From contig CAYWCU010000002.1 in the NCBI GenBank assembly GCA_964456855.1, positions 792-64,791 of the forward strand: a DNA stretch of 64,000 nucleotides. The letters run 5' to 3'. Origin of the DNA: an uncultured Candidatus Saccharibacteria bacterium (GTDB lineage: Bacteria; Patescibacteriota; Minisyncoccia; UBA9983). Below, piece by piece: positions 15,689-39,569 of this stretch. Position 1 is the first letter of the stretch, and every line of letters begins with the position of its first letter. The position numbers and the translations under genes were made by a program. The notes under the pieces were generated by a model. The model was given only the letters and a program-made list of their open reading frames with translations, was not told the origin of the DNA and did not search any database.

Positions 15689-16849
15689 TTATCTGTTTAC
15701 GAATTCCAAAATCTCTTTTACTCTCTTTTCCCAAGTGTGATTTTGAACATCCTCGCACGCCTGCCTTGCAATTCTATCAGCAAAATCGGGGTTCTGCAAA
15801 ACGCGCGCGATACCCTCCGCGAGTTTCTCAGGGTTATCCGGCTCAACCAATATGGCGTTGTTTTCGTTTAAAATTTCCCTGATGGACGGCATGTCCGAGG
15901 CGACAATCGGCGTTCCGCTCGCCATATATTCAAACAGCTTCATCGGTGAAGTGTAATATTTTGAAATATCCTCTTTCGCGGTATTCGGCAACACGAGGAC
16001 ATCGGCGGCTTTCATCCATATAGGCATTTCTCCGTGAGGGCGATATCCGCCAATCTTTATATTTTCGCGATTCTTAACTCTTGATTTATAGTCATTTATA
16101 TCACTTTCCGTCCCCCCAATCAAATATATCAAGATATTCCCGTTCAAAAATTTTCCGGAATCCACCAAAGTGTCCACGCCTTTCCACGAATATAAATGCC
16201 CAGTGTAAAGAACTATTTTTTTATCCGCCGGCAAATTCAATCTCTCTCTGACTTTTAACTTTTCACTTTCAACTTTAAACTTATTGATGTCCACCCCGTC
16301 CGGCGCGACTAAAATCCTACTTGAATCAAGATTGTATTCTTTGATGTAAAAATCTTTGAGCCCTTGGGTAATGGATATAATGCCTCGGCTTTTTTTAAGA
16401 ACCCGCGCCACCAAAAAGTTTTTTCGAGCGGTGTGCGTTTCCCAAACGAGATTCTTTTTAAAAAAAGACAAATAAGAGAGTGGCAATTCGTCGCGGGAGT
16501 AAATTATATCCGCCTTTTGGAACAAAACATACCAAAAAGCGGAACAAGCGAATGAAAGCGACTGGATTCTAAAGCCGATTTTTCCGAATTTCACCAAATC
16601 CAGCGATGGAATTTTCGTTATCCGGAAATTTTTCTTCACTCCGTAATATTCAAACGGATCCTGTTTGATTTTATTGAACCGCCAAGGCAAAACAAGCTCC
16701 ACCTTTAACTTTTCACTTTCAACTTTTAACTCGGAAAACGCCTCGCACATCTTCATTATCTGAATCCCATGCGCCTTTTCCGTGGGTATTCTTACATTGG
16801 CTATGTAAATTATTTTCACCCCATTAGAAATATTTGTTGCTTTTTTCAT
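15689..16849 (-). CDS. glycosyltransferase family 4
   Basis: GT-B fold with C-domain KKIVLYTGHLYSWKGVD ... EMPIWMKAADVLVLPN ... FEYMASGTPIVASD. Contains two identical 23-nt AAAGTTGAAAGTGAAAAGTTAAA tracts, each encoding KVESEKLK. Confidence 0.8.
   Translation of the reverse strand: MKKATNISNGVKIIYIANVRIPTEKAHGIQIMKMCEAFSELKVESEKLKVELVLPWRFNKIKQDPFEYYGVKKNFRITKIPSLDLVKFGKIGFRIQSLSFACSAFWYVLFQKADIIYSRDELPLSYLSFFKKNLVWETHTARKNFLVARVLKKSRGIISITQGLKDFYIKEYNLDSSRILVAPDGVDINKFKVESEKLKVRERLNLPADKKIVLYTGHLYSWKGVDTLVDSGKFLNGNILIYLIGGTESDINDYKSRVKNRENIKIGGYRPHGEMPIWMKAADVLVLPNTAKEDISKYYTSPMKLFEYMASGTPIVASDMPSIREILNENNAILVEPDNPEKLAEGIARVLQNPDFADRIARQACEDVQNHTWEKRVKEILEFVNR
15729..15803. repeat. direct repeat: intact 3' end of GT4 15689-16849, right flank of the AbiE cassette
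   Basis: See 14297-14370. This copy sits inside the functional GT4 C-terminus (VLQNPDFADRIARQACEDVQNH). Confidence 0.75.
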
Positions 16850-16890
16850 AAACTAATTAAGTTATCTGCCCCGTAAATTTCTAACGGGGT

Positions 16891-17562
16891 TCATTTTGTA
16901 ATTTTAATTAAGTTATCATAATATTCATCATTCTCCCACTCTTTTAGCTTTTTTTCGGGGTATGAAAAATCAGGGATATTTTTAGCAATAATATAAATAT
17001 GCGGAGAAAAAATAGAAGTAAAAATTTTATCCAAAAATTTTATTCCAAACGCAAAAGACCTTATATCCGCTATTTCCCACCCCGCCCGCTCAACCGTGAG
17101 CTCCAAGCTCTTTTTAGTGAAAAAATTAATATGGTTGCTTGCCAACGCCCCTCTGAATTTATTTAATTTAAGCAAACAAATAAATTTGGGAATAACGGGC
17201 ACCCCCAGAATTAATATTGTTTTATCGTCAGAAATTTTTTTCAGCTTAATCAAAAAAGAATGCGGGGATAAAATATGTTCAAATAAATTATTCGCCCAAA
17301 TAACCTCAAATTCTCCGGCTAAATCCACTTTATCAATCAATTCAACATTGCCGTATTTTATATTCAAATTATTGCCCTTCCCATACTCAACCTCTGAACG
17401 GGTTGTCGTAATGCCCGCGCTTCCCTTTCCGAAATTAATTAAATATTCACCATAACCACACCCCAAATCAAAAACTCTTTTATTATTTAGCTTAAATTTT
17501 TTTAAAATCCTGTTAAATGATTTTGATTTTTTTACTTTTTTAAAATGTTCTTGTATTTTCAT
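16891..17562 (-). CDS. class I SAM-dependent methyltransferase
   Basis: VFDLGCGYGEYLINFG (motif I) and IWANNLFEHILSP. Confidence 0.7.
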   Translation of the reverse strand: MKIQEHFKKVKKSKSFNRILKKFKLNNKRVFDLGCGYGEYLINFGKGSAGITTTRSEVEYGKGNNLNIKYGNVELIDKVDLAGEFEVIWANNLFEHILSPHSFLIKLKKISDDKTILILGVPVIPKFICLLKLNKFRGALASNHINFFTKKSLELTVERAGWEIADIRSFAFGIKFLDKIFTSIFSPHIYIIAKNIPDFSYPEKKLKEWENDEYYDNLIKITK

Positions 17563-17594
17563 AAATTTTTACCCCGCTAGAGATGGGATGAGTT

Positions 17595-18194
17595 TTAAAC
17601 GATTTTTAATATAAAGAAATGATGGTATTGGTTTTCCAAAGGAATAAATTCATCCATTATCTTGAAATGCCGTTTAATTATTCTCTTTATTTTTCTTAGC
17701 GGATACCCTCGCTTGCCTATTTCCCAATAATGCACACCGCTTGAGTCGTGCTTAAGAGGCAGCGGAATTTTAACGGCAAGGCGCGCTTCTTTTATCATCG
17801 GGATTTTAAAATTCAATTTTAATTGCGGACCGAAATGCGGGAGAGACAAAACAACATATCTTCCGGCAACTCGCCTTAGCTCAGACAAACTTTTTTCAAA
17901 TTTTTCAAAAGGCAAATGCTCAAGTACTTCGGCGCATAAAACAACATCAAAGCTGTTGTTTTCCAGGGGCATATCATCAACCGAACCGACAATGTCCGGA
18001 TTCAGCTCTTTTTCAATGTCAAAAGTTTTTACTTTGCCGATCTGTTTTTTCAAAACATCAACCACAATACCGTCCCCAGGACCGACAACCAAAACGCTGT
18101 TCGGCTCCAAATCCGCGACAGCCCTAATCTGGTGCCAATAACTGACCCAGCGGCTTTTATGGACATATTTTTTGAAGGAATATTTTTTATTCAT
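17595..18194 (-). CDS. class I SAM-dependent methyltransferase
   Basis: VLVVGPGDGIVVDVL ... FDVVLCAEVLEHLP. Confidence 0.7.
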   Translation of the reverse strand: MNKKYSFKKYVHKSRWVSYWHQIRAVADLEPNSVLVVGPGDGIVVDVLKKQIGKVKTFDIEKELNPDIVGSVDDMPLENNSFDVVLCAEVLEHLPFEKFEKSLSELRRVAGRYVVLSLPHFGPQLKLNFKIPMIKEARLAVKIPLPLKHDSSGVHYWEIGKRGYPLRKIKRIIKRHFKIMDEFIPLENQYHHFFILKIV

Positions 18195-18227
18195 ACATTA
18201 AAAAAATCATTTATTTTTCTAATTGCA

Positions 18228-18893
18228 TTATTCATCGCTATTTTCAGCGCGCTGCCGAGCGCGTATAACAAAAGATAAAGCAAACAAGCTTGGCCATTTT
18301 CTTGCTAAAAACTTGAAAATTAACTTGGTAAATATATTGCTATTGCCAAAACCGTTAAATTGGGCATTTTCTATCTCGTATCCCAGCGCGTCCAGCATTT
18401 TTTTTAATTCTTTAAAGTTAAACCAATAAATATGCCCTTTTTGGGGCGAATTATTCTCAGGGACTTTTCCAAGCAATACTTGCAGACGAGCCGGCATAGA
18501 AGAAAAATTGGGGACGCCGATTATGATATATTTTTTTGAAACTCGCACTATCTCCTTGAGTGTTTTCTTGGGATCAAACAGATGCTCTAAAACATCAAGC
18601 GCCACAACATAGTTAAACGCATTATCGCCATAAGGCAACGGGGTGCTTGAAAAATCATACTGCGCCGCGCGCAATCCTTTTTTATTGGCGAGGCATACGG
18701 CTTCTCTGGACAGATCAAGCCCTTCCCCTTTAATATTTTTTTTATCAAGCAATTCAAGAAGCAACCCGTTTCCGCAACCGACATCAAGGACGGAGCCGCC
18801 GGAAATAAGGCTATACGCCGCCCGATGCCTGAATTCACAAGTTTGGCTTCCTCCTCTCCAAAATTTTTCAGCAAATTTTTTTTCTTGACTCAT
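18228..18893 (-). CDS. class I SAM-dependent methyltransferase
   Basis: VLDVGCGNGLLLELL ... FNYVVALDVLEHLFDP ... IIIGVPN. Confidence 0.75.
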   Translation of the reverse strand: MSQEKKFAEKFWRGGSQTCEFRHRAAYSLISGGSVLDVGCGNGLLLELLDKKNIKGEGLDLSREAVCLANKKGLRAAQYDFSSTPLPYGDNAFNYVVALDVLEHLFDPKKTLKEIVRVSKKYIIIGVPNFSSMPARLQVLLGKVPENNSPQKGHIYWFNFKELKKMLDALGYEIENAQFNGFGNSNIFTKLIFKFLARKWPSLFALSFVIRARQRAENSDE

Positions 18894-19130
18894 TTGAATA
18901 TAATGGAACTGCCACTAAATACTAGGTTTGAGCACAGTCCGTTTTAATTTACTTTTACTTCACTGATTAGTCTTTTAATTAAATTTTTCAGACCGTGATT
19001 TTCGGCAACATACTCCCTCATGCCCTCATCTTTGCCGGATTTTGAAAGCGCGATTGTTTTTTTAAAAAGTTTTCTCATTTTTTCCCTAATGTTATTTTTC
19101 GGCGCGGGGGTCAAGTAATCCAAACCGCAA

Positions 19131-19183
19131 AAACCGGCGGGATGTCAGATAAGCCGAGCATCCCGCCGGTTTTTTCTTTTTCG
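19131..19183. terminator. rho-independent terminator (possibly bidirectional)
   Basis: Hairpin ccggcgggatg-N14-catcccgccgg followed by ttttttcttttt. Lies downstream of the minus-strand gene that ends at 19227. Confidence 0.6.
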
Positions 19184-19226
19184 CAAACTTCCGGACAAAA
19201 ATGCGTTCGGTAAAGCAACCTGTTCA

Positions 19227-19637
19227 TTAGGCTTCTTTTTCCGGACCTTTCTCTTCGTCTTTCTCTTCTCCTTCTTTGGAGTCTTCTTCTTCCGATGGCT
19301 TCTCCACCCCACTTATGATATTGGCAACCTCTTGGTAGATGTCTTTTTCCTCAATGCCGTTTCTCTGTAAAAACTTCTTCGCCTCTGGAGTAATTGCCGT
19401 CGTTCCGTCTTTGGCGACATAAAATGTGTGATGTTCGTCTTTGCCCTTCCCCGAGCAAAAGGCGACAAGATTAAAACCCCCTCCTTCCTTAGGTTTGATT
19501 ACAGAGATTGAATCTATCTTGCCCTCGTTTAACGGTTTTCTCGCCCCTTCCTCAATAGCTCCGGTAATTTCTTTTCCCTTATTCTTCAATGCCGCCAATT
19601 TGGCGAAAGGTCCCTCAAATACTTTTCCAAAATTCAT
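19227..19637 (-). CDS. hypothetical protein with an acidic C-terminal tail
   Basis: 136 aa ORF with a clean stop followed by a terminator. No recognisable domain. Confidence 0.4.
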   Translation of the reverse strand: MNFGKVFEGPFAKLAALKNKGKEITGAIEEGARKPLNEGKIDSISVIKPKEGGGFNLVAFCSGKGKDEHHTFYVAKDGTTAITPEAKKFLQRNGIEEKDIYQEVANIISGVEKPSEEEDSKEGEEKDEEKGPEKEA

Positions 19638-19745
19638 ATTTTTTATATTTTTTATATTTTACCGATAAATAACGACCTGTTAGGACTATAACACAAAAAA
19701 AGAAACTTATAAACACATTTTCCGGACATTTCTCTCACTCGCCCC

Positions 19746-19774
19746 AATCCACCGAAACCGGGTTTCGGTGGATT
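19746..19774. repeat. REP-like palindromic element, family A (copy 2)
   Basis: aatccaccgaaaccgggtttcggtggatt has the same core as 1114-1155. Confidence 0.6.
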
Positions 19775-19827
19775 ACAGGAGGTGTATTTGCGCTTGGTGC
19801 GTGAGAAAAATGCCCGGGAAAATGTTT

Positions 19828-20973
19828 TCATTGATTGAGGACGGAGATGATTTTTTTGATGAAGTTCTCCAAGCCATGGTTCTTAACAACAATCTCCCTC
19901 ATATCCGCAGATATTTTTTCTTTTTCATCGGGATTCAAGTCCATAATAAGTTTTATTTTTCCCGCCAGCGCCTCGGAGTCTTTTTTGGGATACATCAATT
20001 TTTCTTTGTATTCGCCAAGGACTTCCAACAGGGCTTCGTTGCAGGTTAGGATGGGCAGACCGCACGCCATTGCTTCAAGAATCGCCTTGTCCAAACTCCC
20101 TGTATGGCTCATATTAACAAACAAATCGGCTGATTGCAGGCGTGGCGCGATATCTTTGTTTGAGACGGCGCCAGCAAAATTTATAACGCCGGAAAGATTT
20201 TTTCGCGCCACCGTTTCTTTTAAGCCAGTAAGATACTTTTCTTGTTCGGGGAGCCCCGCGGCGCCGACAATATCAACTTTTATCTCCAGCCCGCCCTTTG
20301 TCAAAATTTCAACAGCGTTTATGAGCGTTTCGTAATCCTTCACGGGTGATATTCTTCCGATTGAAATAATTTTGAAAATGCCGTCATTTTTTCGGACTTC
20401 CGGACACGGTTTGAATTTTTCTGTATCAATCCCTTGCCCAACGACTTTTTTCTTTTTTGACGCAAGACGGAACCCGCTTTCAGTTGAGGTAAAAACGATG
20501 TCCGTCATTTTTTCCGCCAATTTCAAACTAGAGGGGACCGAACCGTGGGCATACCAAAGACCGATTTTCTTTCCCGTTAATTTCCAAAAGATTCCGCCCA
20601 AAATTACATAGATTTGATTCATATGGACGAAGACGGCGTCGTAGTTTTTTCGCTCGCGCCAGATGTATTTATAAAAATTAAAGATATACTTTAATTTTTT
20701 AGCAACTGACGGCTGAAAGCTGACGACTGAAAGCTGTTCTTTTCCAAGAGAAAGAACTTTAACCCCAGTACCAGAAAATTCCTTTGAATTTTCGCTACGG
20801 GGCTTCGCATTTCTGGCAGAGAAAAAATCATGTTCGCCCTCTTCCAAACATATGACGGTGATTTTTTCGCAATGCTTGGCGAACTCTTTAACCCATTGAT
20901 GGAAAAACCCCAAAACATCGTCGTTTGGGTCCATTTTTTGTGTGATTATCAATAACTTGACTTTTTTATTCAT
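19828..20973 (-). CDS. glycosyltransferase family 4
   Basis: Start trimmed to MNKKVKLLIITQ (ATG 20973). C-domain ISIGRISPVKDYETLINAV ... GSLDKAILEAMACGLPILT. Contains a CTGACGG/CTGAAAG heptamer tract at 20706-20736. Confidence 0.8.
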   Translation of the reverse strand: MNKKVKLLIITQKMDPNDDVLGFFHQWVKEFAKHCEKITVICLEEGEHDFFSARNAKPRSENSKEFSGTGVKVLSLGKEQLSVVSFQPSVAKKLKYIFNFYKYIWRERKNYDAVFVHMNQIYVILGGIFWKLTGKKIGLWYAHGSVPSSLKLAEKMTDIVFTSTESGFRLASKKKKVVGQGIDTEKFKPCPEVRKNDGIFKIISIGRISPVKDYETLINAVEILTKGGLEIKVDIVGAAGLPEQEKYLTGLKETVARKNLSGVINFAGAVSNKDIAPRLQSADLFVNMSHTGSLDKAILEAMACGLPILTCNEALLEVLGEYKEKLMYPKKDSEALAGKIKLIMDLNPDEKEKISADMREIVVKNHGLENFIKKIISVLNQ

Positions 20974-21033
20974 ATCTATATTATATAAGTATAAATTCCT
21001 TCGGGATCGCCCTGAAAAGGGCATAAATTGGAT

Positions 21034-21456
21034 CTAGGAAAAATCGGCAAGCTTTAGCAGTTTGCCGATTTTTCTTTTCATATTCTCAAAGTCATCCGCA
21101 GAAATCATTCCCAACTTTTTAACCAGTCTTTTTGAATCTATCAGTCTTATTTGAGATAAAATAGCGCTGTTTTTCTTGTTTTTGAGATTGAAATTAAAGT
21201 AAAAAACGCCTGCCTTTTGTTTAGTTGTTAGCGGAACGCATAAAAAAACACTGTTGTTGAATTTCCTCAGCACGACGACGGGTCTGGAAAAATTCTCATT
21301 TTTCCCTTCTTGCTCAAAGCCGATATTTCTCCCAAGGGACGCGTAGAAAATATCCCGTTCTTTGAAAAACACCCGCCGGTCGCGGTCATTCAAGCCCTTT
21401 TTTAATGCGTTCCATTCATCAAATAAATTCATGTTTTTATCATTAGTGTTTGTCAT
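21034..21456 (-). CDS. MazF/PemK-family toxin-like protein, second paralog
   Basis: LFDEWNALKKG ... FSRPVVVLRK ... CVPLTTK ... RLVKKLGMISADDFENM is collinear with the 3333-3722 paralog and with MazF. The start may instead be 21432. Confidence 0.55.
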   Translation of the reverse strand: MTNTNDKNMNLFDEWNALKKGLNDRDRRVFFKERDIFYASLGRNIGFEQEGKNENFSRPVVVLRKFNNSVFLCVPLTTKQKAGVFYFNFNLKNKKNSAILSQIRLIDSKRLVKKLGMISADDFENMKRKIGKLLKLADFS

Positions 21457-21480
21457 CGTTTTTGTCCACTTTTTGGGTAA

Positions 21481-21514
21481 TTATCAGTAACTTGACTTTT
21501 TTATTCATATCTAT
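21481..21514. repeat. duplicated 5' end (first 13 codons, MNKKVKLLIITQK) of the GT4 gene 19828-20973
   Basis: ttatcagtaacttgacttttttattcatatctat versus 20946-20979 ttatcaataacttgacttttttattcatatctat. On the reverse strand it reads MNKKVKLLIITQKVDKNDDKH* and runs into the MazF-like gene start. Confidence 0.75.
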
Positions 21515-21590
21515 GTATAATTATTGCAATCACCACGGGTCAGACATGGATAAGGTTTCGTCCTTATCTAGGACTCCCGGCAAAACATCG

Positions 21591-22106
21591 TCAACTTCGG
21601 TTGGCGATGTTTTGTTTACTTCCGAGCTTCTTCACAAAACCATCCAAAAACAAAAACATACTGTTGTCTTTTAAAACTATTTTTAATAACTTGGAATACC
21701 TTTTGCGAGATGGCACTACTAATTTTCCAAGCTTTTCTTTCTCATTTAAGTATTCCACCAAGCATGCAAAATCCCCGTCACCGCTTACAATTACAGCTTT
21801 ATCAAAATTCGGATACTCAATCATTGTGTGCAAAACAAGTTCAGCGTCAACATTGCCCTTTACGCCCTCGGGATGGTTTTGCACCACGGGTTTAAACACC
21901 ATAACAAAACCCTCTTCTTTTAACTTTTTATATAATTTATCATTCTTTTTTATATACCCGATGAAAAGAAAGGCTTTTTCAACTCCATATTTCTCTTTCA
22001 AATACACGCGAAAGCGGGCAAAATCCAATTTCCAGCCCAAAGACAGTATGCTTAAATTCAAATTCTGGCTGTCTATAAACGCGTAATTTATCTCTTTTTT
22101 GTTCAT
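21591..22106 (-). CDS. NYN-domain (LabA-like) protein
   Basis: AFIDSQNL ... DAELVLHTM ... AVIVSGDGDF match the NYN/LabA PIN-like nuclease domain. Confidence 0.7.
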   Translation of the reverse strand: MNKKEINYAFIDSQNLNLSILSLGWKLDFARFRVYLKEKYGVEKAFLFIGYIKKNDKLYKKLKEEGFVMVFKPVVQNHPEGVKGNVDAELVLHTMIEYPNFDKAVIVSGDGDFACLVEYLNEKEKLGKLVVPSRKRYSKLLKIVLKDNSMFLFLDGFVKKLGSKQNIANRS

Positions 22107-22261
22107 TTTTTTGGTTTGTCCTTTTCATTATATAACAAATACGGATAAATGGAGAGCAAAAAATTGGGCTCCTTTTAATTTCAGTTGCAACATTTTTTAG
22201 GGAAATCGGCGCTTCAATAGGCAAAGCCAAAGTACTGGATCATAAAGAAAGCATCTAGACG

Positions 22262-22993
22262 ATGGGCTTTCTCAGTCTGCTTTGGGGGAGTATTTTTATC
22301 ATCAGTATCGGTTTTATACGGGATGATTTTGTTTTTTCAATGGCATCTCTGCCGACATTCGGGGCGAGAATAGTCATTGAAATAATGCAGATTCATGTGA
22401 TGCTGCTCGCAACGGTAAAGGCCGACAGGAGCACATGGGGATTTCTGCGAATTATTACAATCCCAATACTTCTGACAACGGATATATTCTTGGACTACAA
22501 GATAACGCCACTTCAAATTACCGGAATAGGAATCATAATTTTAAGCCTCATTATTCTTTTTATCAATCACGGCATCAAGAAAAAAGGAATGTGGCTTGTT
22601 TTGTTCACCGCGGTAAACAGCGCCGCCGCAATCTCCCTTTATAAATACGACATTACTCATTTTAATTCCGTGGAGGCTGAGCAAAGCATTATTATACTCA
22701 TTCTGATGGTTTATCTTTTTATAATGGCCGTTTTTGTCGCCAAAGAAAACCCTATTTTATTCTTGAAGAAACCGTTTTTTATTCTTCAATCAATAGCGGG
22801 AGGATTGAGTCCGGCGTTCTTGAGTTTCGCTTATTTGTTCGCCCCCGCTTCAGTCATCACCACGGGCAAGCGTTCATTTTCAATTCTTTGGTCTATGCTT
22901 TCCGGCAATATGTATTTCCATGAAAAAAATTTTTTGATTAAATTTTCCTCATTCACTTTAATCGTCGTTGGGCTTATACTCCTTTTCTTTTAA
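22262..22993 (+). CDS. multi-pass integral membrane protein (possible DMT/EamA-like transporter)
   Basis: About 8 hydrophobic segments and no soluble domain. Confidence 0.45.
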   Translation: MGFLSLLWGSIFIISIGFIRDDFVFSMASLPTFGARIVIEIMQIHVMLLATVKADRSTWGFLRIITIPILLTTDIFLDYKITPLQITGIGIIILSLIILFINHGIKKKGMWLVLFTAVNSAAAISLYKYDITHFNSVEAEQSIIILILMVYLFIMAVFVAKENPILFLKKPFFILQSIAGGLSPAFLSFAYLFAPASVITTGKRSFSILWSMLSGNMYFHEKNFLIKFSSFTLIVVGLILLFF

Positions 22994-23015
22994 GTGAGAT
23001 GTGGAGGAAAAAAGA

Positions 23016-24650: not shown

Positions 24651-24672
24651 ATAATTGGTTATACCATAAACA

Positions 24673-25374: not shown

Positions 25375-25420
25375 AAAGAGGGACGCGGCGCGCCCCTCAA
25401 AGAATGTTCTCTTTTATTTT

Positions 25421-25960
25421 TCAAAAAAACCTTTTGAACCACCCATTTTTGTTTTTTAATTTTCCTTTTCCAAGGTCTTCCAGCAGGGATATCTCACTTT
25501 CATAAAATATCCCGTTTTTTTTATACCATCTGGCACTTCCTCCATAATCGAAGTCCGTGCCAGCTACTAGAGAATATGCCGTCACTATTTCATATCCGTT
25601 AGCGACGGCTGACTCTGCCGTCGCCTTCACGCAACAGTCAGCGTAGATTCCCGTTAACAACAGGGTATCCACCCCCATATAATGAAGATGCCTGGAAAAC
25701 TCACTGCACTCAAACCCGTCCCAGCCGGATTTAAGAAAGAGTTTTCTCCGGCATTCCGGCACTCTTTCTATTTTTTTCTCAAGTGTCCGGACTGTGTCTC
25801 CATAGCCGGCATATTCCACAACGACAAGGGGAATCTCCCCCCCCACGCATAATTCCTTAATGACCATTATGCTTGCCTTGAGGATTCTTTTTGCATCCTT
25901 TTTTGCTATGTGACGCAAAAAACGCGCCTGCATATCTATCAGAACGACCGCCAGCTTCAT
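25421..25960 (-). CDS. isochorismatase-family cysteine hydrolase
   Basis: LAVVLIDMQ (Asp) and LLLTGIYADCCV (catalytic Cys). Confidence 0.75.
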   Translation of the reverse strand: MKLAVVLIDMQARFLRHIAKKDAKRILKASIMVIKELCVGGEIPLVVVEYAGYGDTVRTLEKKIERVPECRRKLFLKSGWDGFECSEFSRHLHYMGVDTLLLTGIYADCCVKATAESAVANGYEIVTAYSLVAGTDFDYGGSARWYKKNGIFYESEISLLEDLGKGKLKNKNGWFKRFF

Positions 25961-31520: not shown

Positions 31521-31549
31521 TTTAAAATTTGGGTACCCTTTTGGGGCTT

Positions 31550-32719
31550 TTATTCGTCCGAAGTCGGTGTTTTTATTTTTTTAAAAATCGCGACCAAATC
31601 CTCCAACATTCTTTCTTTGCCGAACTCTCCGACTTTTTGCCCGGCGTTTCGGATGATTTCATTTCTCAATTTCAGGTCGTCGCGCAATTCAAATATCGCC
31701 TTTTTCAGTTCCTCTTTATCGCCATACTCAACCAGAAACCCGTTTTCTTTATCTGTTATCATTTCCGGATTTCCTCCGATATCCGTGGTTATGACGGGAA
31801 TACCGAGAGCCATCGCTTCAAGCAATTGATGCGAAAAGCCCTCATATCCCGTGTTGAGAACAAAAACATCCCCGGCGCGAAGCAGGAGAAGCAGTTCCTC
31901 TTGGGGCAATTGACCGAGCAAAAAAACATTCTTTCGCAAACCGTAATTAGCAATGACCGTTTCCAACGCTTCCCGGTCTGGACCGGAACCGATTATAAAA
32001 AATTTCGCGGATGGAATTTCCTTTAAGATTTTCGGCATAATTCCAATGAGCGTTTTGAAACCTTTCCATGGGACAAGCCGCCCGGCGGAAATAATCAAAA
32101 AGTCATCAGCTTTCAGCTGTCGGTTGTCAGCTATTTTTTTCCGCGCGTCCTCTTTGCTTACTTCTAGTTTCGGCGCGTTGAAAGCATTATGGATAACTTT
32201 TATTTTATCCCCGTTTATTGCCCAGCTCGCGACTATTTTTTTCAAATATTCACTCGGCGTAATGATTTTCTCCGCTTGCCGAGCAACCCACCTTTCAATT
32301 TTTCTCCTCAATTCAGTGAGCCAATCAAACCTCCTTTCTTGAAACTCCTCCAAGCTGATAAAGCGGTTTCTGTTTGAAAATTCATGCGAAGATCCGCTTT
32401 GCATATATTGTTCCCAAGCGTAATCGCCAACAATCTTCAAGATAAATTTCTTCCGCAGGAGCTTCGCGGCAATCGCTGCCGGCAAACCAACGCTCACAGG
32501 ATCCTGGGCGAACACAATATCCGCTTCGCGCGCGCGATTCAAAACCTTAAAAAAATAAGAGAAATGCCGAATGATTTTCGGCAGTCGCCTTACTTTACCG
32601 AAACTCAAAATTTCAACCTCCATCCCCTTTTTCGGCAATTCGTCGAAAAGCAGTTTTGAATATGTCGCCGGTCCCCCTATGTCGGGTGGATAAATGCCGG
32701 TTGCGATTAAAATCCTCAT
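31550..32719 (-). CDS. glycosyltransferase family 4
   Basis: MRILIATGIYPPDIGGPATY... N-domain and FLIISAGRLVPWKGFKTLIG ... EGFSHQLLEAMALGIPVITTDIGG C-domain. Heptamer tract at 32105-32130. Confidence 0.85.
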   Translation of the reverse strand: MRILIATGIYPPDIGGPATYSKLLFDELPKKGMEVEILSFGKVRRLPKIIRHFSYFFKVLNRAREADIVFAQDPVSVGLPAAIAAKLLRKKFILKIVGDYAWEQYMQSGSSHEFSNRNRFISLEEFQERRFDWLTELRRKIERWVARQAEKIITPSEYLKKIVASWAINGDKIKVIHNAFNAPKLEVSKEDARKKIADNRQLKADDFLIISAGRLVPWKGFKTLIGIMPKILKEIPSAKFFIIGSGPDREALETVIANYGLRKNVFLLGQLPQEELLLLLRAGDVFVLNTGYEGFSHQLLEAMALGIPVITTDIGGNPEMITDKENGFLVEYGDKEELKKAIFELRDDLKLRNEIIRNAGQKVGEFGKERMLEDLVAIFKKIKTPTSDE

Positions 32720-32765
32720 ATATTTTGATGATAATACAATTAAAGGCTATTATCAATTGATAATT
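32612..32765. repeat. ~150 bp direct repeat, copy 1: 5' end plus promoter region of GT4 31550-32719
   Basis: ttcaacctccatcccctttttcggcaattcgtcgaaaagcagttttgaatatgtcgccggtccccctatgtcgggtggataaatgccggttgcgattaaaatcctcata... recurs at 33978-34128. Confidence 0.85.
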
Positions 32766-32976: not shown

Positions 32977-33762
32977 ATGGTTATGTCAAACGCAATTGAT
33001 TGGAGGCGCATTGAGAAAGCCCTGCTACAGCAAGCGCGCGCTATTGGCGCTGAAAAAAGCAGGGTTAAAGAAATTATTTTGCAATTATCTCAATTGGTTG
33101 AAGTCTGCGGAGAATTTTCGAGAAACAGAAGGATGCTTGTTCGGTTGGGTAGAATTTTTCTGGAGCAAAATCCGATTATATTTGCTCCGTGTTGCCCGGA
33201 CTACACCTGTGAAAAAGGACATTATGATTTTCAGGGGCTAAATGAAGGAGTTTCCTTGGCAACAAGGAAACAAATTAAATTTTTAGAAAAAATAGTGGGG
33301 ATTATTCCACAAGCAAAACCGGTTCTTCTTATCTCGGATCTGGATTCAGATAATGAATCCATTCTTAAAGCCGTGAGGAAAACCAAACAAGAATTTGGTT
33401 TTTGCGTAAAAAGCTCATTAGAAGCCACTCGCGGAGTAATTGAAAATCTTGGGTGGGAGGCAGAGCTTATGACTGTAAAATTTCCTTCTTGGCGCTTCGC
33501 GGAGAAGGAAATTATTGAATGGCTACGTCAAAGTGAGAAGTTTAAAGAGCGTTTGGTTTTAGAGAGCGTGAGGGGCTCGAGACTAACATTAAACCGCGCG
33601 GAAAGATTAAACCGCGCCGAAAGAAATGCTTCTCAATTTGTTGTTCTTGGGAGATTGGCTACCAAGAACAACGCGATTATTTGCGACACAACCACCGGGA
33701 TAATGTCCTGGTATCTGCAAACAGAGGCTGCCATCCTTTGTAATCCAATTAATATTTATTAA
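32977..33762 (+). CDS. hypothetical protein (Cys-containing CCPDYTC motif, no recognised domain)
   Basis: 261 aa ORF with a strong RBS (aaggagg) 8 nt upstream. Bracketed by the 150 bp direct repeats. Confidence 0.45.
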   Translation: MVMSNAIDWRRIEKALLQQARAIGAEKSRVKEIILQLSQLVEVCGEFSRNRRMLVRLGRIFLEQNPIIFAPCCPDYTCEKGHYDFQGLNEGVSLATRKQIKFLEKIVGIIPQAKPVLLISDLDSDNESILKAVRKTKQEFGFCVKSSLEATRGVIENLGWEAELMTVKFPSWRFAEKEIIEWLRQSEKFKERLVLESVRGSRLTLNRAERLNRAERNASQFVVLGRLATKNNAIICDTTTGIMSWYLQTEAAILCNPINIY

Positions 33763-33929: not shown

Positions 33930-34128
33930 ATTCTGAATATTTTGCGTTTTGTTTTGATGACATGGTTGAAGCAATCACTTCAACCTCCATCCCCTTTTTC
34001 GGCAATTCGTCGAAAAGCAGTTTTGAATATGTCGCCGGTCCCCCTATGTCGGGTGGATAAATGCCGGTTGCGATTAAAATCCTCATATGTTGTAATAATA
34101 ATACAGTTAAAGGTCTTTATCAATTAGT
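33930..34128 (-). pseudogene. duplicated 5' fragment of the GT4 gene (remnant MRILIATGIYPPDIGGPATYSKLLFDELPKKGMEVEV...), direct repeat copy 2
   Basis: Reverse strand from ATG 34087 reproduces the first ~40 codons of GT4 31550-32719, then diverges and stops. Confidence 0.7.
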
Positions 34129-34145
34129 TTTATCAAAATAAAATA

Positions 34146-34373
34146 ATGGAAAAAACAAATGAATCTCCAAAGCGGGATGCCGAAGAAAATGAACCTATAG
34201 AGAACAGGCTGTCACTGACCGATAGAGAAAGATTTTTGGAGTTGAGAGAAGCATTCAAAACTATCATTAAGAATTCAAACATCAGCGAGATACTTGACGA
34301 TCCGGAAACAAATCAGTTAACCAAGGAGCTGAAAGAACTGGTTAAAAAAGCCGAAAGCAGAGGAGGAAAATAA
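34146..34373 (+). CDS. small acidic hypothetical protein
   Basis: 75 aa ORF. No homology recognised. Confidence 0.25.
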   Translation: MEKTNESPKRDAEENEPIENRLSLTDRERFLELREAFKTIIKNSNISEILDDPETNQLTKELKELVKKAESRGGK

Positions 34374-34454
34374 ATCAGCCAATCGTTCCAGAGCCCGAGG
34401 GGAAAATTTATGTTCCGAACAAAAAGAAAGGGGCGCGTGAAGACAAACGCCATT

Positions 34455-35678
34455 TTAACTTAGAATTTTGCCGAAAACTTTTTCGCGCATATCCTTGGCG
34501 ATTAAATTCCAGTCGTATTTTTCAAAGGCGAGCTTTTTCGCGTTGGCAAGCGTCCGCGCGGTTTGCTCTGGATTGTCCAGTATTTTTTTAACCGCCTCGG
34601 CGATTCCCTTCGGGTCGCGCGGATTGACGGCCCAGCCGGTCGGCTCCTTGTCCGGATTTCGTTCGGAGTCAAAAAGAAAATCAGCGATGCCCCCTTCTTG
34701 CGTTGCTATCACCGGCAAGCCTGCCGCCATCGCTTCAATGAACGAATTGCCCATTCCCTCGGAAAGGGACGGGCGGATGAATATGTCCGTGGCGGCGAGA
34801 TATTTCGGTAATTCTTTGTGGTCAACAAGTCCCAAGAAAATAACCCTGTCCGCGACACCCTCGTCTTTCGCCAACTTTTTGAGCGCTTCCAAATCCGGCC
34901 CACTTCCCAAAACGATAAACTTTATCCGCCGCGGCGGATCCGGCAAGTGTTTAAGTGATTTAATAACATCGTCAACGGCGTTCTTTTTCACCAAACGCGA
35001 GGTCGTGATTAAATATTTGTCACTCGCTTTTTTGCCCAGTTTATTTTTCAACTCACTCAATTCTTCTTCCGAATACTCCCGCGCGAAACGCTCCGTATCC
35101 ACTCCGTTCGGAACAATTTCAAGCGAACCTTTGAACCCCATATCGCGCGCCCATTTGCCGAGATAAGTTGAAATTGCCTGAATCAAATCCGCCTTAACAA
35201 ATACCATTTTAAAAAAAGGATACACCGCTCGTATTCTCCATCTTTCGGTTATATGAGAAATAGAATCCCCTTCCTGCAGAGTAAGGAGAAACGGGATGTT
35301 CCGTTTATAAAAAATTTTAAAAAATACCGCGGGAAATCCGGCGTAAGACATTATGGACCAAACAGCGTCATACTTGTTTTGCCTGTAAAGTTTAACTGCC
35401 TTAAAAAACGCGAGGAACGGATAAAACACTTTGGAGAAATACATAGGAAATTTAACAAGATCTTCCATTGAAGGGCTTTTTCGGGCAAAGCCGATTCTGC
35501 ACACATTCACATTTCCGATTTTTTCAAACTTGGGAAGGCTACTGTCAAAACGCAGAGTTACCATATCAAATTGAATATCGTCCGGACTGATTCGGTCCGT
35601 AATTTCTTTAACAGCCACTTCCGCTCCGCCGATGAAGGGATGATAAGCGATTGAGAATATAAGGATTTTCTTGGTCAT
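34455..35678 (-). CDS. glycosyltransferase family 4
   Basis: ILIFSIAYHPFIGGAEVAV ... YLITTSRLVKKNAVDDVIK ... EGMGNSFIEAMAAGLPVIAT. Confidence 0.85.
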   Translation of the reverse strand: MTKKILIFSIAYHPFIGGAEVAVKEITDRISPDDIQFDMVTLRFDSSLPKFEKIGNVNVCRIGFARKSPSMEDLVKFPMYFSKVFYPFLAFFKAVKLYRQNKYDAVWSIMSYAGFPAVFFKIFYKRNIPFLLTLQEGDSISHITERWRIRAVYPFFKMVFVKADLIQAISTYLGKWARDMGFKGSLEIVPNGVDTERFAREYSEEELSELKNKLGKKASDKYLITTSRLVKKNAVDDVIKSLKHLPDPPRRIKFIVLGSGPDLEALKKLAKDEGVADRVIFLGLVDHKELPKYLAATDIFIRPSLSEGMGNSFIEAMAAGLPVIATQEGGIADFLFDSERNPDKEPTGWAVNPRDPKGIAEAVKKILDNPEQTARTLANAKKLAFEKYDWNLIAKDMREKVFGKILS

Positions 35679-35698
35679 TTGCTATATAATACAATGAA

Positions 35699-36868
35699 AT
35701 GAAGGATGAATCAAAGAAAAAAGTTTTATATATCATCACGAAATCCGTGTGGGCGGGAGCGAGCAAGTATACTCACGACTTGGCGGTTTCATTGCCAAAG
35801 GACAAATACGCCCCGATAGTTGCCGCGGGCGGAAGAGGCGCGATGGCGGAAAAAATCATCTCAGCCGATATTCCCTATTTTGAAATCAAATCTTTTCAGC
35901 GAGATGTGAGTATGTTCAAAGACATTTTCGCTTTTTTGGAAATCCTCTCTTTGTTTTTTAAAATCAAGCCGGATGTGGTTCATGTTTCAAGCGCCAAGGC
36001 GGGCGGTATTGCCGGAGTGGCGGTTTTCGCTTACAAACTTTTCACTTCTCGTTTTTCGGTTGTCGCTTGTTTTACCGTCCACGGATGGACATTCAACGAA
36101 CCTCGTCCGCGGTGGCAAACCACGCTGATAAAGATTTTTTCCAAATTGACCTGCCTTTTTTACGGCAAGATTATTTGCGTTTCGGAACACGATTACGATG
36201 TTGCCCTGAAGAACAGAATTACTTCTGAGAAGAAAATGGTTGTCATCCGCAATGGAATAAAACCGGAAGAATATGATTTCCTGCCCAAGGAAGAAGCGCG
36301 AAAAGCCATCAGTCACCACTTGGAAGCCGAGCTTCCAAGTGGTGCTTGGGTTGGAACGATAGGAGAGTTTACGAAAAACAAAGGGCACCTGTTTTTGATT
36401 GAAGCAATCAAAAAGCTATCGGCTGTCGGCTGTCGGCTGTCGGCCGTTTTAATCGGTTTTGACGGCGGAGAAAAAAGAAATTTGGAATCGCAAATCAAAA
36501 ACGGCGGGCTAAGCGATAAAGTTTTTTTGATTGAGGGTCTGCCGGACGCCGCCAAATACCTGAAAGCGTTTGATGTTTTTGTTCTCCCCTCCCTCAAAGA
36601 GGGCTTGCCTTACGTTTTGCTTGAAGCTGGACTGGCAGGGCTTCCGATTGTCGCGTCAAATGTCGGAGGCATTCCTGAAATCGTTGAAAATGGAAAAACC
36701 GGCATTTTGACAAGCCCCGCGGACGGACTCGCGGACGCGATTAAAGAACTTATTGAAAACCCGGAGATGCGGAACAAACTCTCCGTCGCCGCGCGCGAAA
36801 AAATTCTCCAAGATTTCTCTTTTAAAAAAATGCTCGCGGAAACCGTCCGCCTGTACGGAAACGGCTGA
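35699..36868 (+). CDS. glycosyltransferase family 4
   Basis: VGTIGEFTKNKGHLFLIEAIKKL ... EGLPYVLLEAGLAGLPIVASNVGGIPEIV. Contains the (GCTGTCG)x4 heptamer tract 36415-36446 encoding LSAVGCRLSAV. Confidence 0.85.
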   Translation: MKDESKKKVLYIITKSVWAGASKYTHDLAVSLPKDKYAPIVAAGGRGAMAEKIISADIPYFEIKSFQRDVSMFKDIFAFLEILSLFFKIKPDVVHVSSAKAGGIAGVAVFAYKLFTSRFSVVACFTVHGWTFNEPRPRWQTTLIKIFSKLTCLFYGKIICVSEHDYDVALKNRITSEKKMVVIRNGIKPEEYDFLPKEEARKAISHHLEAELPSGAWVGTIGEFTKNKGHLFLIEAIKKLSAVGCRLSAVLIGFDGGEKRNLESQIKNGGLSDKVFLIEGLPDAAKYLKAFDVFVLPSLKEGLPYVLLEAGLAGLPIVASNVGGIPEIVENGKTGILTSPADGLADAIKELIENPEMRNKLSVAAREKILQDFSFKKMLAETVRLYGNG

Positions 36869-36995
36869 AAAACAGCCCTATTGTTATCTTCCACAGCATT
36901 TTATCGAGATAAAACTTTTCTTGTCTTCCGAAGAAAAAGATGTTAGGAATAAATTAAGGAGAACATTAAAATTTTATTAAAAAAGGAGGTGACAT

Positions 36996-37571
36996 TTGAA
37001 CAAGAGGAAAAAGGTTCTTATTGGTTCAGGCATTGCGAGTTTCCTTGTCTTGATGTTTTTCGGCGCCACCGGAACCTTGCAAAATTTCCTGAAAGATTTT
37101 TTTTATTTTCTTTTGGGGAATACGGAAAAAATTTCCCAAAATGCCGGCGCCTATATTTTAATCGCAATTGCTGTTCAAATCGCCGTTGATTTGGCAATAC
37201 TGAGCATGGCGAATGAATCAATATCGTCCCCGGAATACGATACTCTGTCGTACGCAAAAATAATCTGGTACTCCTCTCAGGAAGAAATCATATTCAGGTG
37301 GGCTCTGATATGGATAATAGCGTTAAACCCTCTTTCAACGGTATGGTTCTACTTTATACTGTTGGGGAGCAACCTTGTTTGGACGATATTACACATTCCA
37401 AACTTCAAAGAAGAAAAATTGGCGACGGGGGTGTTGGGGCTGACGAATATTTTTATTTTCGGTCTTCTTGCCTGGTTTTTATTCATCAAGTTCGGAATAT
37501 TGGCGGCAATCGCCGCTCATATTTTAGTCAATGTAATATACAAAAAGCTGAACAAAATGTCACGAGAATAG
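36996..37571 (+). CDS. CPBP-family intramembrane glutamic metalloprotease (CAAX protease / Abi PF02517)
   Basis: EEIIFRWAL (EExxxR), TILHIP (FxxxH-like) and AAHILVN (HxxxN) motifs within TM helices. Confidence 0.7.
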   Translation: MNKRKKVLIGSGIASFLVLMFFGATGTLQNFLKDFFYFLLGNTEKISQNAGAYILIAIAVQIAVDLAILSMANESISSPEYDTLSYAKIIWYSSQEEIIFRWALIWIIALNPLSTVWFYFILLGSNLVWTILHIPNFKEEKLATGVLGLTNIFIFGLLAWFLFIKFGILAAIAAHILVNVIYKKLNKMSRE

Positions 37572-37674
37572 AAGGGATGAAATTTTCCGCTTTGAGGCTT
37601 TCGTTTTTCGTCAATTTTCATATTGGTGATGATGTTTAATGGGTATATAACTTTAACAGGAGAATTCAACAAAT

Positions 37675-37700
37675 AAAGCGCGGCAAAGCCGCGCTTTTAA
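37675..37700 (+). terminator. rho-independent terminator
   Basis: agcgcggc-aaa-gccgcgct followed by tttaaaatt. Confidence 0.5.
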
Positions 37701-37763
37701 AATTGGCGCGTATTGGCGGCAAGAAACTGGAAATTCGGCTTGTTTTAAGGTAGTATTCAATGA

Positions 37764-39569
37764 ATGGAGGCAAAAAATATAAGAAATTTCAGCATAATAG
37801 CTCACATTGACCACGGGAAATCCACTTTGGCGGACAGGATTTTGGAATTGACCGGCACCATTGAAAAGAGGAAAATGCAGGAGCAGATTTTGGACCAAAT
37901 GGAATTGGAACGCGAAAGAGGAATCACGATTAAAATGCAGCCCGTGCGAATGAACTATCAGCTATCAGCTATCAGCTATCAGCTTAACCTGATTGACACC
38001 CCCGGGCATATTGATTTTTCTTACGAAGTTTCCCGCGCCTTGAAAGCCGTTGAAGGAGCCGTTCTTTTGGTGGATGCCACCCAGGGCGTGCAGGCGCAGA
38101 CAATCAGCAACGTGGAAATGGCGAAGTCAATGGGGCTGACAGTTATTCCCGTTCTTAATAAAATGGACCTTCCTTCCGCGAACGCCGAAGAATCCAGAGA
38201 GGAAATAAAACGGCTGTTGGAAGGAGAAGGCGCGGAAGAAATAAAAATAATGGAAATATCCGCAAAAACGGGACAAGGCGTGAAAGAACTGCTAGAGGAA
38301 ATAATCGCGCGCGTTCCTCCCCCGAAATACGAATACAAGGACAGGCCGAGGGCGCTTATTTTTGATTTTGAATATTCAAACCACCAAGGGGTAATCGTTT
38401 ACGCGAGAATTATGGACGGAAAAATCAAAAAAGGAGATGAGCTCATCCTCTCTCAAACGAAAGAAAAATTCATTGTCGGAGAAGTGGGAATATTCAGCCC
38501 GCAGAAAAAATCTTGTGATGAATTATCCGCCGGGGAAATAGGATATATAGTAACCAATGTTAAAAAACCGAGTATCGCCGCCGTCGGAGATACTCTTGTT
38601 TCGCCGACCAACCCCCTCCCTCCTTTGCCCGGATATTGCAAACCGAAACCAGTCGTTTGGGCGAGTGTTTATCCTGATTCGCAAAATGATTTTAACAACC
38701 TTCGCCAGGCATTGGAACGCTTAAGACTTTCGGACAGTTCCCTCGCCTTTGAGGAAGAAACGAGTGGCGCTTTGGGAAGAGGTTTCCGCTGTGGTTTCCT
38801 CGGAATGCTTCATCTTGAAATAATAACCGAACGGCTTAGGCGCGAATTCAATTTAAACATTATTATCGCCGCTCCAACCATCAGCTATAAAATCCTTTTC
38901 ACGGACGGAACTGAGAAAGAAATATATTCACCCACTTTTTTCCCGGACGAAAACAGGATAAAGAAAATTTTTGAACCTTGGGTTGATATGGAAATTATGA
39001 GCCCGCCCGAAAAACTCGGGCCAGTGATGCAGCTTCTGCACGAACACGAGGCGGAAGTCGGAGAAATGAAGCAATTCGGAAATCACCGGACAATTCTAAA
39101 CGTGAAAATGCCGTTACGGGAACTGATGAGGGGTTTTTTTGACGAACTCAAAAGCGCGACAGCCGGCTACGCATCATTGAATTATAAAATTAATGAAATG
39201 CGGGAAGCTCCAGTCGGCGGAATACTAAAAATGGAGGTGCTTGTCGCCGAAGAGCCGGTGCCGGCCTTCGCGCGAATCGTAAGTAAAAAGCGCGTGCAGA
39301 AAGAAGCGGAAGAAACGGTGGAGAAATTGAAAAATATTCTTCCCCGGACGCTTTTTTCAATCAAAATTCAGGCGAAAGCCATGGGCAAAATACTGGCATC
39401 AAGATCGCTAACGGCAATGAAAAAAAATGTTACCGCTCATCTTTACGGAGGGGATATAACGAGAAAAATGAAATTGAGAGAGAAACAAAAAAGAGGAAAG
39501 AAGCGTATGAAAGAAATGGGAAAAGTTAACATTCCTCAAGAAGTGTTTGTGAAAATGGTTCAAAAATAA
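37764..39569 (+). CDS. lepA: translation elongation factor 4 (LepA)
   Basis: NFSIIAHIDHGKSTLADR, DTPGHIDFSYEVSRAL, NKMDLP, the LepA-specific C-terminal domain, 601 aa. Contains a (CTATCAG)x4 heptamer tract at 37955-37986 encoding YQLSAISYQL. Confidence 0.95.
   Translation: MEAKNIRNFSIIAHIDHGKSTLADRILELTGTIEKRKMQEQILDQMELERERGITIKMQPVRMNYQLSAISYQLNLIDTPGHIDFSYEVSRALKAVEGAVLLVDATQGVQAQTISNVEMAKSMGLTVIPVLNKMDLPSANAEESREEIKRLLEGEGAEEIKIMEISAKTGQGVKELLEEIIARVPPPKYEYKDRPRALIFDFEYSNHQGVIVYARIMDGKIKKGDELILSQTKEKFIVGEVGIFSPQKKSCDELSAGEIGYIVTNVKKPSIAAVGDTLVSPTNPLPPLPGYCKPKPVVWASVYPDSQNDFNNLRQALERLRLSDSSLAFEEETSGALGRGFRCGFLGMLHLEIITERLRREFNLNIIIAAPTISYKILFTDGTEKEIYSPTFFPDENRIKKIFEPWVDMEIMSPPEKLGPVMQLLHEHEAEVGEMKQFGNHRTILNVKMPLRELMRGFFDELKSATAGYASLNYKINEMREAPVGGILKMEVLVAEEPVPAFARIVSKKRVQKEAEETVEKLKNILPRTLFSIKIQAKAMGKILASRSLTAMKKNVTAHLYGGDITRKMKLREKQKRGKKRMKEMGKVNIPQEVFVKMVQK
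37955..37986. repeat. heptanucleotide tandem repeat (CTATCAG)x4 within lepA
   Basis: ctatcagctatcagctatcagctatcagctta, in frame. Confidence 0.85.

Follow-up and report, generated by a model that had tools for sequence, protein, structure and literature searches.

Why does a stretch of bacterial DNA carry 7-nt tandem repeats inside one glycosyltransferase gene after another, and do these repeats switch the genes on and off? The question is raised by a 64,000-nt stretch of contig CAYWCU010000002.1 (assembly GCA_964456855.1; hereafter the window), deposited under an uncultured Candidatus Saccharibacteria bacterium, in which short heptanucleotide tracts lie within genes of the GT4 glycosyltransferase family and within lepA. 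A first-pass annotation had read them as slipped-strand, phase-variable contingency tracts controlling surface-glycan glycosyltransferases. Judged from the contigs compared here, such tracts are common among related Paceibacterota/Parcubacteria loci of the candidate phyla radiation (CPR) rather than peculiar to this genome, and we think it probable, if well short of assured, that they are heptanucleotide microsatellites in which slippage turns units over while selection preserves the reading frame.

Tracts in the window were located with Tandem Repeats Finder (TRF) and with a strict match/mismatch period scan of our own, which was compared with 30 dinucleotide shuffles; gene identities in the window were assigned with Pfam. 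Metagenome contigs were scanned with an alignment of the GT4 family, yielding 80 loci (835 kb in total) that were surveyed with TRF. LepA was compared among 80 relatives (1.3 Mb of loci), and perfect repeats of at least four units were counted over 0.93 Mb. To find changes between near-identical sequences, we inspected pairs of contigs sharing at least 99% identity, as well as the full-length proteins grouped into 90% clusters. Related contigs and proteins are cited by our own labels (e.g., L001, P0040). Sequence matches of its LepA place the window in the Paceibacterota/Parcubacteria; the nearest genome is a Candidatus Campbellbacteria metagenome-assembled genome (MAG; L001), with 90% amino acid identity, and the remaining matches lie at about 60%.

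Heptanucleotide tracts in the window lie within coding sequence

The strict scan detected six period-7 tracts in the window, compared to 0.1 expected from the shuffles, and zero tracts with periods of 4–6, 8 or 10–13 nt. TRF reported arrays at the positions that the first-pass annotation had listed, with one exception, and the unit sequences and peptides quoted in that annotation were correct; the exception, a tract at 32105–32130, is present but is degenerate and falls under a TRF score of 30. Each tract lies inside coding sequence, as had been proposed, though the carriers number six GT4 genes by Pfam and open reading frames (ORFs), rather than five, in addition to lepA.

The GT4 gene at 15689–16849 (minus strand; 386-residue ORF; Pfam Glycos_transf_1, E = 4e-25) contains two of the tracts. 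The first, at 16251–16282 (AAAGTKR, 4.6 copies, 84% matches), encodes KFKVESEKLK at around residue 190, just before the first strand of the C-terminal domain, and the second, at 16704–16731 (same unit, 4.0 copies, 80% matches), encodes LKVESEKL at around residue 41; the two have an identical 23-nt string in common. The GT4 gene at 19828–21024 (minus strand; Glycos_transf_1, E = 3e-23) carries alternating CAGCTTT and CAGYCGT units at 20706–20736, i.e., a period of 14 or twice 7 (2.2 copies, 94%), that encode QLSVVSFQPSV. The degenerate tract at 32105–32130 belongs to the GT4 gene at 31550–32719 (minus strand; Pfam E = 7e-44): it runs GCTGACA ACCGACA GCTGAAA GCTGATG, or TCAGCTT TCAGCTG TCGGTTG TCAGCTA on the other strand, and encodes DNRQLKADD, and the orthologous site in the syntenic relative L083 is (GACCGGC)x3.3. 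On the plus strand, the GT4 gene at 35699–36868 (Pfam E = 9e-36) carries (GCTGTCG)x4.3 at 36415–36444 (95% matches), encoding LSAVGCRLSAV. This tract is of equal length and less perfect in L001, and in its place L083 has (TGTCAAT)x4.7, which encodes LSIVNCQLSIV. The other two GT4 genes are copies A and B of a disrupted duplicate (26069–27168 and 28956–29947), described below along with lepA.

Wherever a copy of the units AAGCTGA or AAAGTTG would put TGA in frame, that copy is substituted (AGC CGA and AGT GAA, respectively). In the 16251–16282 tract, a perfect unit would yield an in-frame TGA at a point where the sequence is instead AGTGAA. Similarly, in the tract at 26433–26464 of copy A (minus strand; AAGCTGA, 4.6 copies, 84%), which follows the motif GDGPE at a position we call site 2 and encodes KLKAESRKLK, CTGA is replaced by CCGA exactly where TGA would fall in frame. 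These stop-avoiding substitutions, together with the shared 23-nt string, would point to selection on a repeat at the level of DNA.

Three other repeats were noted in the region. A degenerate (AGAAATC)x4.3 array (69% matches) lies at 10452–10480 inside the gene at 10018–10881, which is annotated as Glyco_transf_11 in a sister contig, so a glycosyltransferase outside GT4 may hold an old tract. The sole strong non-heptamer tandem repeat of the region, (ATATTTTTT)x2.8 at 19636–19660, is located at the start codon of the ORF at 19227–19637. An 18-nt tandem repeat, (ATTAAACCGCGCCGAAAG)x2.1 at 33588–33624, encodes LNRAER twice inside the ORF at 32977–33762, which has no Pfam match.

Tracts in related GT4 loci have period 7 and lie in frame

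At least one tract was present in 67 of the 80 metagenome GT4 loci. Arrays of period 7 (92) and period 14 (47) made up the 139 tracts of these loci (any other period, 1–22). Tracts were mostly 27–36 nt in length, with about 4.3–5 repeats of a unit, and the number of distinct units was at least 57. Period 7 accounted for 37 perfect repeats of four or more units, compared to 1, 0, 1, and 1 for periods 4, 5, 6, and 8, respectively; perfect runs peaked at 30–34 nt and reached a maximum of 35 nt (at most 5 units). Almost all tracts were located in ORFs of at least 150 residues (130/139), and 126 were in GT4 genes. In the syntenic relatives L083 and L084 there are 10 and 5 tracts, respectively; many are perfect (100% matches), and a GT4 gene usually has two.

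Strict tracts occurred at 48.8 per 100 kb in the ascertained GT4 family (27 of 68 genes with a tract) and at 14.3 per 100 kb in GT4 paralogues that were not ascertained for tracts (28 of 175), compared to 0.7 per 100 kb in all other genes (3 of 433). GT4 genes are hence 20–70 times as dense in tracts as other genes. When all loci were pooled, GT4 genes had 27.8 tracts per 100 kb, noncoding DNA 4.05, and coding sequence outside GT4 0.40. All 116 evaluable tracts of relatives were in frame, and none was found at a frame switch.

These data bear on whether the tracts are simply heptad repeats of the ordinary, protein-level kind, or longer arrays collapsed by short-read assembly. The encoded peptides do have a periodicity of seven residues, the tract length of about 30 nt is near common k-mer sizes, and the assemblies are mosaic at the duplicated GT4 region. 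However, the DNA period is 7 nt and not 21, and it is often 100% exact, for which selection at the protein level gives no cause; the Tyr, Cys, and Trp content of the peptides follows from stop avoidance in three frames. Collapsed arrays would be in frame one time in three, in contrast to the 116 of 116 observed, and the same tracts are found in independent assemblies by different projects. We rejected assembly artefact on the grounds of this frame conservation and these identical tracts, and regard the explanation as a whole as scarcely credible. The first-pass view that these are DNA-level 7-nt repeats and not ordinary peptide heptads therefore stands, given a period of 7 without a pattern confined to 21 nt.

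Tracts recur at particular positions within the GT4 proteins. In the numbering of P0040, hot spots were observed at residues 280–289, 190–209, and 210–229, with weaker sites elsewhere. In homologues of the split GT4 gene, the linker from RIKxSL to VLPIFVD is variable and often consists of a translated heptamer repeat, e.g., AVSRQPSAVS (P0040), AISYQLSAIS (P0013), SKFKILNSKI, and TINYKLKTEI; the linker of P0013 uses the repeat unit of the lepA tract of the window. In an AlphaFold model (predicted local distance difference test, pLDDT, 79), the hot spots at 280–289 and 190–209 comprise a helix end, the next loop, and the start of the following strand. These first two hot spots are thus predicted to be structured surface elements and not disordered tails.

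Three candidate sources of the tracts were considered and rejected. The CAGC/GCTG core is confined to the lineage of the window, while at least 57 unrelated units occur across loci, and so it is not a sequence-specific signal. Identical units, which made up 4.2% of within-locus and 1.3% of between-loci pairs, gave too little support to the idea that tracts in the same genome exchange sequence by transfer or gene conversion. An insertion element or intron, suggested by tblastn spans of 1.6–1.9 kb in GT4 homologues, was dismissed because the spans are adjacent GT4 paralogues.

A dedicated, lineage-specific process could instead write or maintain period-7 modules of about 31 nt at particular GT4 sites; conceivable agents would be a nuclease or recombinase whose 7-nt staggered cuts are filled in, target-site duplications of 7 bp that occur repeatedly, or templated diversification. 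Such a process would suit the exclusive period of 7, the narrow length window of 30–35 nt, the strong specificity for one gene family, the recurrent hot spots, and the exchange of sequence at constant length. We nevertheless consider it very unlikely, since we saw neither an element nor a template or associated gene, the unrelated units exclude one templated sequence, and unit sharing within a locus is barely over background. There was also no Rfam match of relevance in the region (a search of the window returned one tRNA only), and RNA structure was inconsistent across six tract regions (z-scores of +1.0, -2.0, -0.3, +0.7, +1.4, and +1.3). A scan of viral contigs for tract plus flank gave no match.

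Some tracts of relatives lie outside GT4 and LepA. One, (CGCTACA)x3.6 at 20109–20133 of L024, is inside a TsaD-like gene (ATRYTLHA; identified by eye), and those at L042 14612, L154 14121, and L092 2707 are directly upstream of the start codons of genes that resemble polA, radical-SAM, and NAD-epimerase genes by eye. The L084 orthologue of the 31550–32719 gene (L084 7270–8493) contains a long degenerate (AAAATCA)x9.4 array; it is split into two frames at around 7808–8005, distant from either of its tracts.

The LepA hairpin carries tracts in several lineages

The lepA gene (EF4; 37764–39569, plus strand; Pfam GTP_EFTU and LepA_C) contains a perfect (CTATCAG)x4.3 tract at 37955–37984 (100% matches), which encodes YQLSAISYQL. 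The tract forms the surface hairpin of the G domain between ERERGITIK..VRM and NLIDTPGH, the latter including the DTPGH motif. Most of the 80 LepA relatives have a non-repetitive 29-residue hairpin at this position, with the pattern Y-x-L-D-G-x-E-Y-x-L. Seven of the 80 have period-7 DNA exactly at the hairpin, with differing units: CTATGAG in L001, CTACAAC in L015 and L043, CCTAAAC in L025, CTAWACG in L010, and CGAAATC (x3.6) in L039. The strict scan of the LepA loci detected seven period-7 tracts, of which five were at the hairpin, with that of L039 a sixth by position.

The hairpin units of the window, L001, L010, L015, L025, and L043 fit TAYNNNC, with L039 the exception; this is the form that a 7-nt repeat must take in order to hold Tyr-x-Leu at a spacing of seven residues. 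The first-pass annotation had described the tracts as having spread into lepA. This does not hold, as the LepA hairpin is a hot spot in its own right in several lineages.

In addition, a k = 31 Logan contig (L167; SRR6439354_12232), found in 5 samples, ends at 37984, the last base of the lepA tract. This end is ambiguous: it suggests a graph branch, arising either from a longer lepA allele or from another locus with the same 30-mer.

Units change together and rarely change in number

Comparing orthologues for the presence and length of tracts, as the first-pass annotation had recommended, was informative: orthologous tracts differed by the presence or absence of three units (21 nt) and had all their units changed together. 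At one position in the 35699–36868 gene, site A, the window encodes AISHHLEAE (about one unit), compared to AISHQLSAISRLEAW in L001 and AVSRQPSAFSHLD in L083 (about four units each); the difference is three units, or 21 nt, plus an unrelated CAC codon. The orthologous tract further along this gene is GCTGTCG x4 in the window and, written in another phase than above, TTGTCAA x4.7 in L083. At site 2, the unit is AAGCTGA in the window, and its syntenic relatives L083 and L084 have AAATCTC and AGTCGTC. For lepA, the CTATCAG x4 of the window is matched in L001 by CTATGAG in three of four units, in the same phase. On these alignments, units are more alike within an array than between orthologues, and the same substitutions set orthologous tracts apart in every unit; this amounts to concerted evolution.

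Sister and Logan contigs are 99.985–100% identical to positions 7595–26371 and 33988–49569 of the window. Compared to these contigs, there was no length change at the tracts beginning at 16251, 16704, 20706, 36415, and 37955. There was also no in-frame length polymorphism in three protein clusters with 9–11 full-length members. A difference in unit number between near-identical sequences was observed at one tract only, with three versus four units, in two sister assemblies.

A disrupted GT4 duplicate varies in unit number

The variable tract, (CGTCAGC)x3 at 26681–26701 (minus strand; 3.0 copies, 100%), is located in the interdomain linker of copy A (26069–27168, minus strand) and is out of frame. 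We confirmed the reported offset of the N- and C-domain frames: ESLKDV and VSILPIFVD, on either side of the tract, are read in different frames, and either one or four units would join them. The four-unit allele encodes ESLKDVSRQPSAVSILPIFVD, and in the homologue P0040 of L083 the linker is AVSRQPSAVSVLPIFVD, encoded by (AGCCGTC)x4.3. Copy B (28956–29947, minus strand) is 92% identical to copy A overall and has the same three-unit tract (29460–29480) and site-2 tract (29212–29243).

It had also been claimed that one added unit would restore the frame. As frame arithmetic this is correct, and in the sister contig L119 (VAPA010679554; 99.6% identity to the window) the tract has four units and the ORF is intact, but in the window an in-frame TGA at 26743–26745, 14 codons ahead of the tract, already closes the N-domain frame. 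Copy A is broken by both this nonsense codon and the frameshift. The TGA replaces a codon for Cys, which is TGC in L119 and is conserved in most of 40 aligned GT4 homologues (motif ADCVRVVS). Copy B has the same lesion at 29522–29524 and a second in-frame TGA at 28956–28958. A third state is found in the sister contig L172 (VAPD01005363; 99.1% identity), which combines the TGA with four units, as seen at copy B; both copies in the window combine it with three. The 7-nt unit is the sole indel in 2887 nt between L119 and the window, and the sole internal difference between L172 and the window.

We considered whether UGA might be a sense codon, as in genetic codes 4 and 25. This was rejected, since TGA is an ordinary stop that ends 11 of 56 long ORFs of this genome and the site encodes a conserved Cys (TGC in L119), not Gly or Trp. 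Because TGA replaces a conserved Cys codon, copy B has a second one, and TGA is a normal stop, the frameshifted gene is best read as a decaying duplicated pseudogene and not as a demonstrated switch. The nonsense allele is present with four units in L172; therefore, the unit was lost from an allele that was already dead.

Copies A and B are 100% identical over about 615 nt (26214–26826 and 28993–29605), with flanks of about 85–88% identity, which indicates either recent gene conversion or homogenisation by the assembler. All differences between the window and the sister assemblies at this locus fall inside the duplicated segment, and L172 is a mosaic between the two copies. Assignment of the three- and four-unit alleles to copy A or B is thus uncertain on these assemblies, in contrast to the existence of both alleles.

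The contingency reading was weighed against these data. In contingency loci, one-unit slippage would reversibly switch surface-glycan GT4 genes (and lepA), with four units as the ON state, for example to escape phages or to alter attachment to a host. Glycosyltransferases are a classical phase-variable gene class, the units inside the surface-related GT4 genes have a length that three does not divide, and three-unit (OFF) and four-unit (ON) alleles occur in sister populations. GT4 tract density exceeds that of noncoding DNA, the many perfectly uniform tracts require frequent unit turnover, and some tracts lie directly upstream of start codons. The Logan contig that ends with the lepA tract is consistent with a branch from a longer allele, and minority alleles would be hidden by consensus assemblies. 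Yet each of the 116 evaluable tracts is in frame, whereas the tract of neuO is OFF in 66% of genomes and varies between 3 and 53 units (PMC13001214). Perfect runs of at most 35 nt fall short of the long tracts, typically of more than 6–8 units and wide range, expected of contingency loci. The tracts also lie mid-gene (residues 190–290), such that an OFF state would give long truncated products. The sole OFF allele also carries the nonsense codon, which occurs with four units as well; the other tracts compared were constant between near-identical contigs, and the three protein clusters had no in-frame length polymorphism. What survives of the first-pass proposal of a contingency signature is that unit number varies and sets the frame. 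Given the short runs, the invariant frame, and an OFF allele that was already nonsense, we consider true contingency loci unlikely, if not negligibly so.

Probable slippage under selection for frame

The data fit the reading we favour, in which slippage or out-of-register repair homogenises heptanucleotide microsatellites and purifying selection keeps them at the one in-frame length that is tolerated. Slipped-strand mispairing or out-of-register repair during replication would gain, lose, and overwrite units, and overwriting would keep each tract uniform while its unit sequence drifts, resulting in concerted evolution. We infer that selection acts as the pin: since 7 is not divisible by 3, the gain or loss of a single unit would destroy the gene and be purged, while a tolerated length or a three-unit change (21 nt, seven residues) would survive. 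As each of the three phases of a tract is translated, a stop-creating unit would stay mutated in exactly one copy, and TA and TG dinucleotides would force Tyr, Cys, or Trp codons, which would explain the odd peptides. The out-of-frame tract of the window would reflect slippage in a pseudogene, namely the GT4 duplicate that already had a nonsense codon. It is possible that the inheritance of self-perpetuating tracts in an expanding GT4 family contributes.

Several points weigh against this reading. Plain slippage does not predict an exclusive period of 7, since slippage should be easier for shorter units. The specificity for GT4 genes, in which tracts are denser than in noncoding DNA (27.8 versus 4.05 per 100 kb), is not explained by tolerance alone. 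Tract-bearing and tract-free homologues are often of equal protein length, as for the 29 residues of the LepA hairpin and for the GT4 linker; therefore, tracts replace sequence rather than simply insert. Direct evidence of instability comes from one locus, in a duplicated region with mosaic assemblies. The other tracts in the inspected contig pairs of at least 99% identity were unchanged, i.e., nearly invariant, and full-length members of the 90% protein clusters were almost all of one length. A tract is also found in the TsaD-like gene of L024, which was identified by eye, and TsaD is essential in model bacteria.

Because orthologous units differ, yet those of contigs with at least 99% identity and of 90% clusters almost never do, unit turnover appears to be fast relative to protein divergence and slow on population timescales. 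The exclusivity of period 7, the enrichment in GT4 genes above noncoding DNA, and the length-neutral replacement of sequence are accounted for by none of the readings. A bolder proposal credits the Paceibacterota with a system, so far undescribed, that actively produces or preserves modules of about 31 nt and period 7 at fixed sites of GT4 surface-glycan genes and of LepA; the modules would act as programmed, low-copy devices for switching or tuning the episymbiont surface by mutation. Its agent could be a lineage-specific property of replication or repair, or a dedicated enzyme; we regard this as quite unlikely at present.

Other features of the region

A 138-nt repeat, about 95% identical between 32621–32758 and 33988–34125, duplicates the 5′ end and upstream sequence of the GT4 gene at 31550–32719. 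It breaks assemblies, given that sister contigs begin at 33988 and a Logan contig at 34059. Among the glycan genes are an AbiEii-family gene with an upstream partner (14370–15621), a gene for a PemK-type toxin (21034–21456), and an NYN-domain gene (21591–22106). The segment at 43603–47894 starts with a tRNA (43603–43673), followed by genes for a helix-turn-helix protein, a HinfI-like endonuclease, an HNH nuclease, a KilA-N protein, a methyltransferase fragment, and an SLFN/AlbA_2 protein, and may be an integrated defence island.

Comparison with known heptanucleotide repeats

In open-access papers and bioRxiv, we found no description of heptanucleotide repeats, simple sequence repeats (SSRs), or phase variation in Parcubacteria or Patescibacteria. 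Nor was there a report in these sources of such tracts in CPR bacteria, of their confinement to GT4 and LepA, or of their fixed in-frame length of about 4.4 units. Since CPR bacteria, or Patescibacteria, live attached to other cells and have very small genomes, surface glycans probably decide their interactions with hosts and phages. A class of heptanucleotide repeats specific to a gene family would provide concrete loci at which to examine CPR surface variation in existing read sets. On a practical note, the tracts break de Bruijn contigs and create apparent frameshifts and pseudogenes in MAG annotation.

The glycosyltransferases FutA and FutB of Helicobacter pylori vary by slippage in their number of 7-residue repeats. 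Their DNA period is 21 nt, without a 7-nt sub-period, so that every change stays in frame; the tracts described here repeat every 7 nt at the DNA level, in many cases with 100% matches.

A closer parallel is the (AAGACTC)n tract of neuO, the O-acetyltransferase gene of the CUS-3 prophage of E. coli K1, which ranges between 3 and 53 units and is OFF in 66% of 64 genomes (PMC13001214). Both involve a 7-nt unit within a gene for a surface-glycan enzyme, a translated heptad, and a reading frame that is restored with each third unit number, and neuO is known to vary by strand slippage (PMC13001214). In contrast to the single 5′-end tract of neuO, those of the GT4 genes have 4.3–5 units, lie mid-gene, often number two or three per gene, have different units at every site, and are essentially always in frame. 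The heptanucleotide SSRs of Haemophilus influenzae are similarly tied to surface structures: they occur in the hmw1A and hmw2A promoters and, in one case, inside an ORF, where (AATTTTG)14 of hmw1A coincides with a frameshift (PMC2651432). These arrays differ in having 13–38 units, in being mostly located in promoters, and in being few per genome and not gene-family-wide.

In their exact period of 7 and low copy number, the tracts resemble intergenic heptamers, i.e., the short tandemly repeated repetitive sequences (STRR) of cyanobacteria, the TAACTGA repeats of Beggiatoaceae, which come in sets of two to six copies (PMC4679880), and the GGGAATC repeats of Xanthomonas and Nostoc, which show a preference for four units (PMC4692102). 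Heptamers are over-represented among long bacterial SSRs for reasons that are unexplained (PMC4692102), and the present loci sharpen this puzzle, with period 7 near-exclusive and the arrays inside genes. Unlike those intergenic families, each of which has a single consensus, the tracts described here use at least 57 units, are located in GT4 genes in 126 of 139 cases, and are read in frame.

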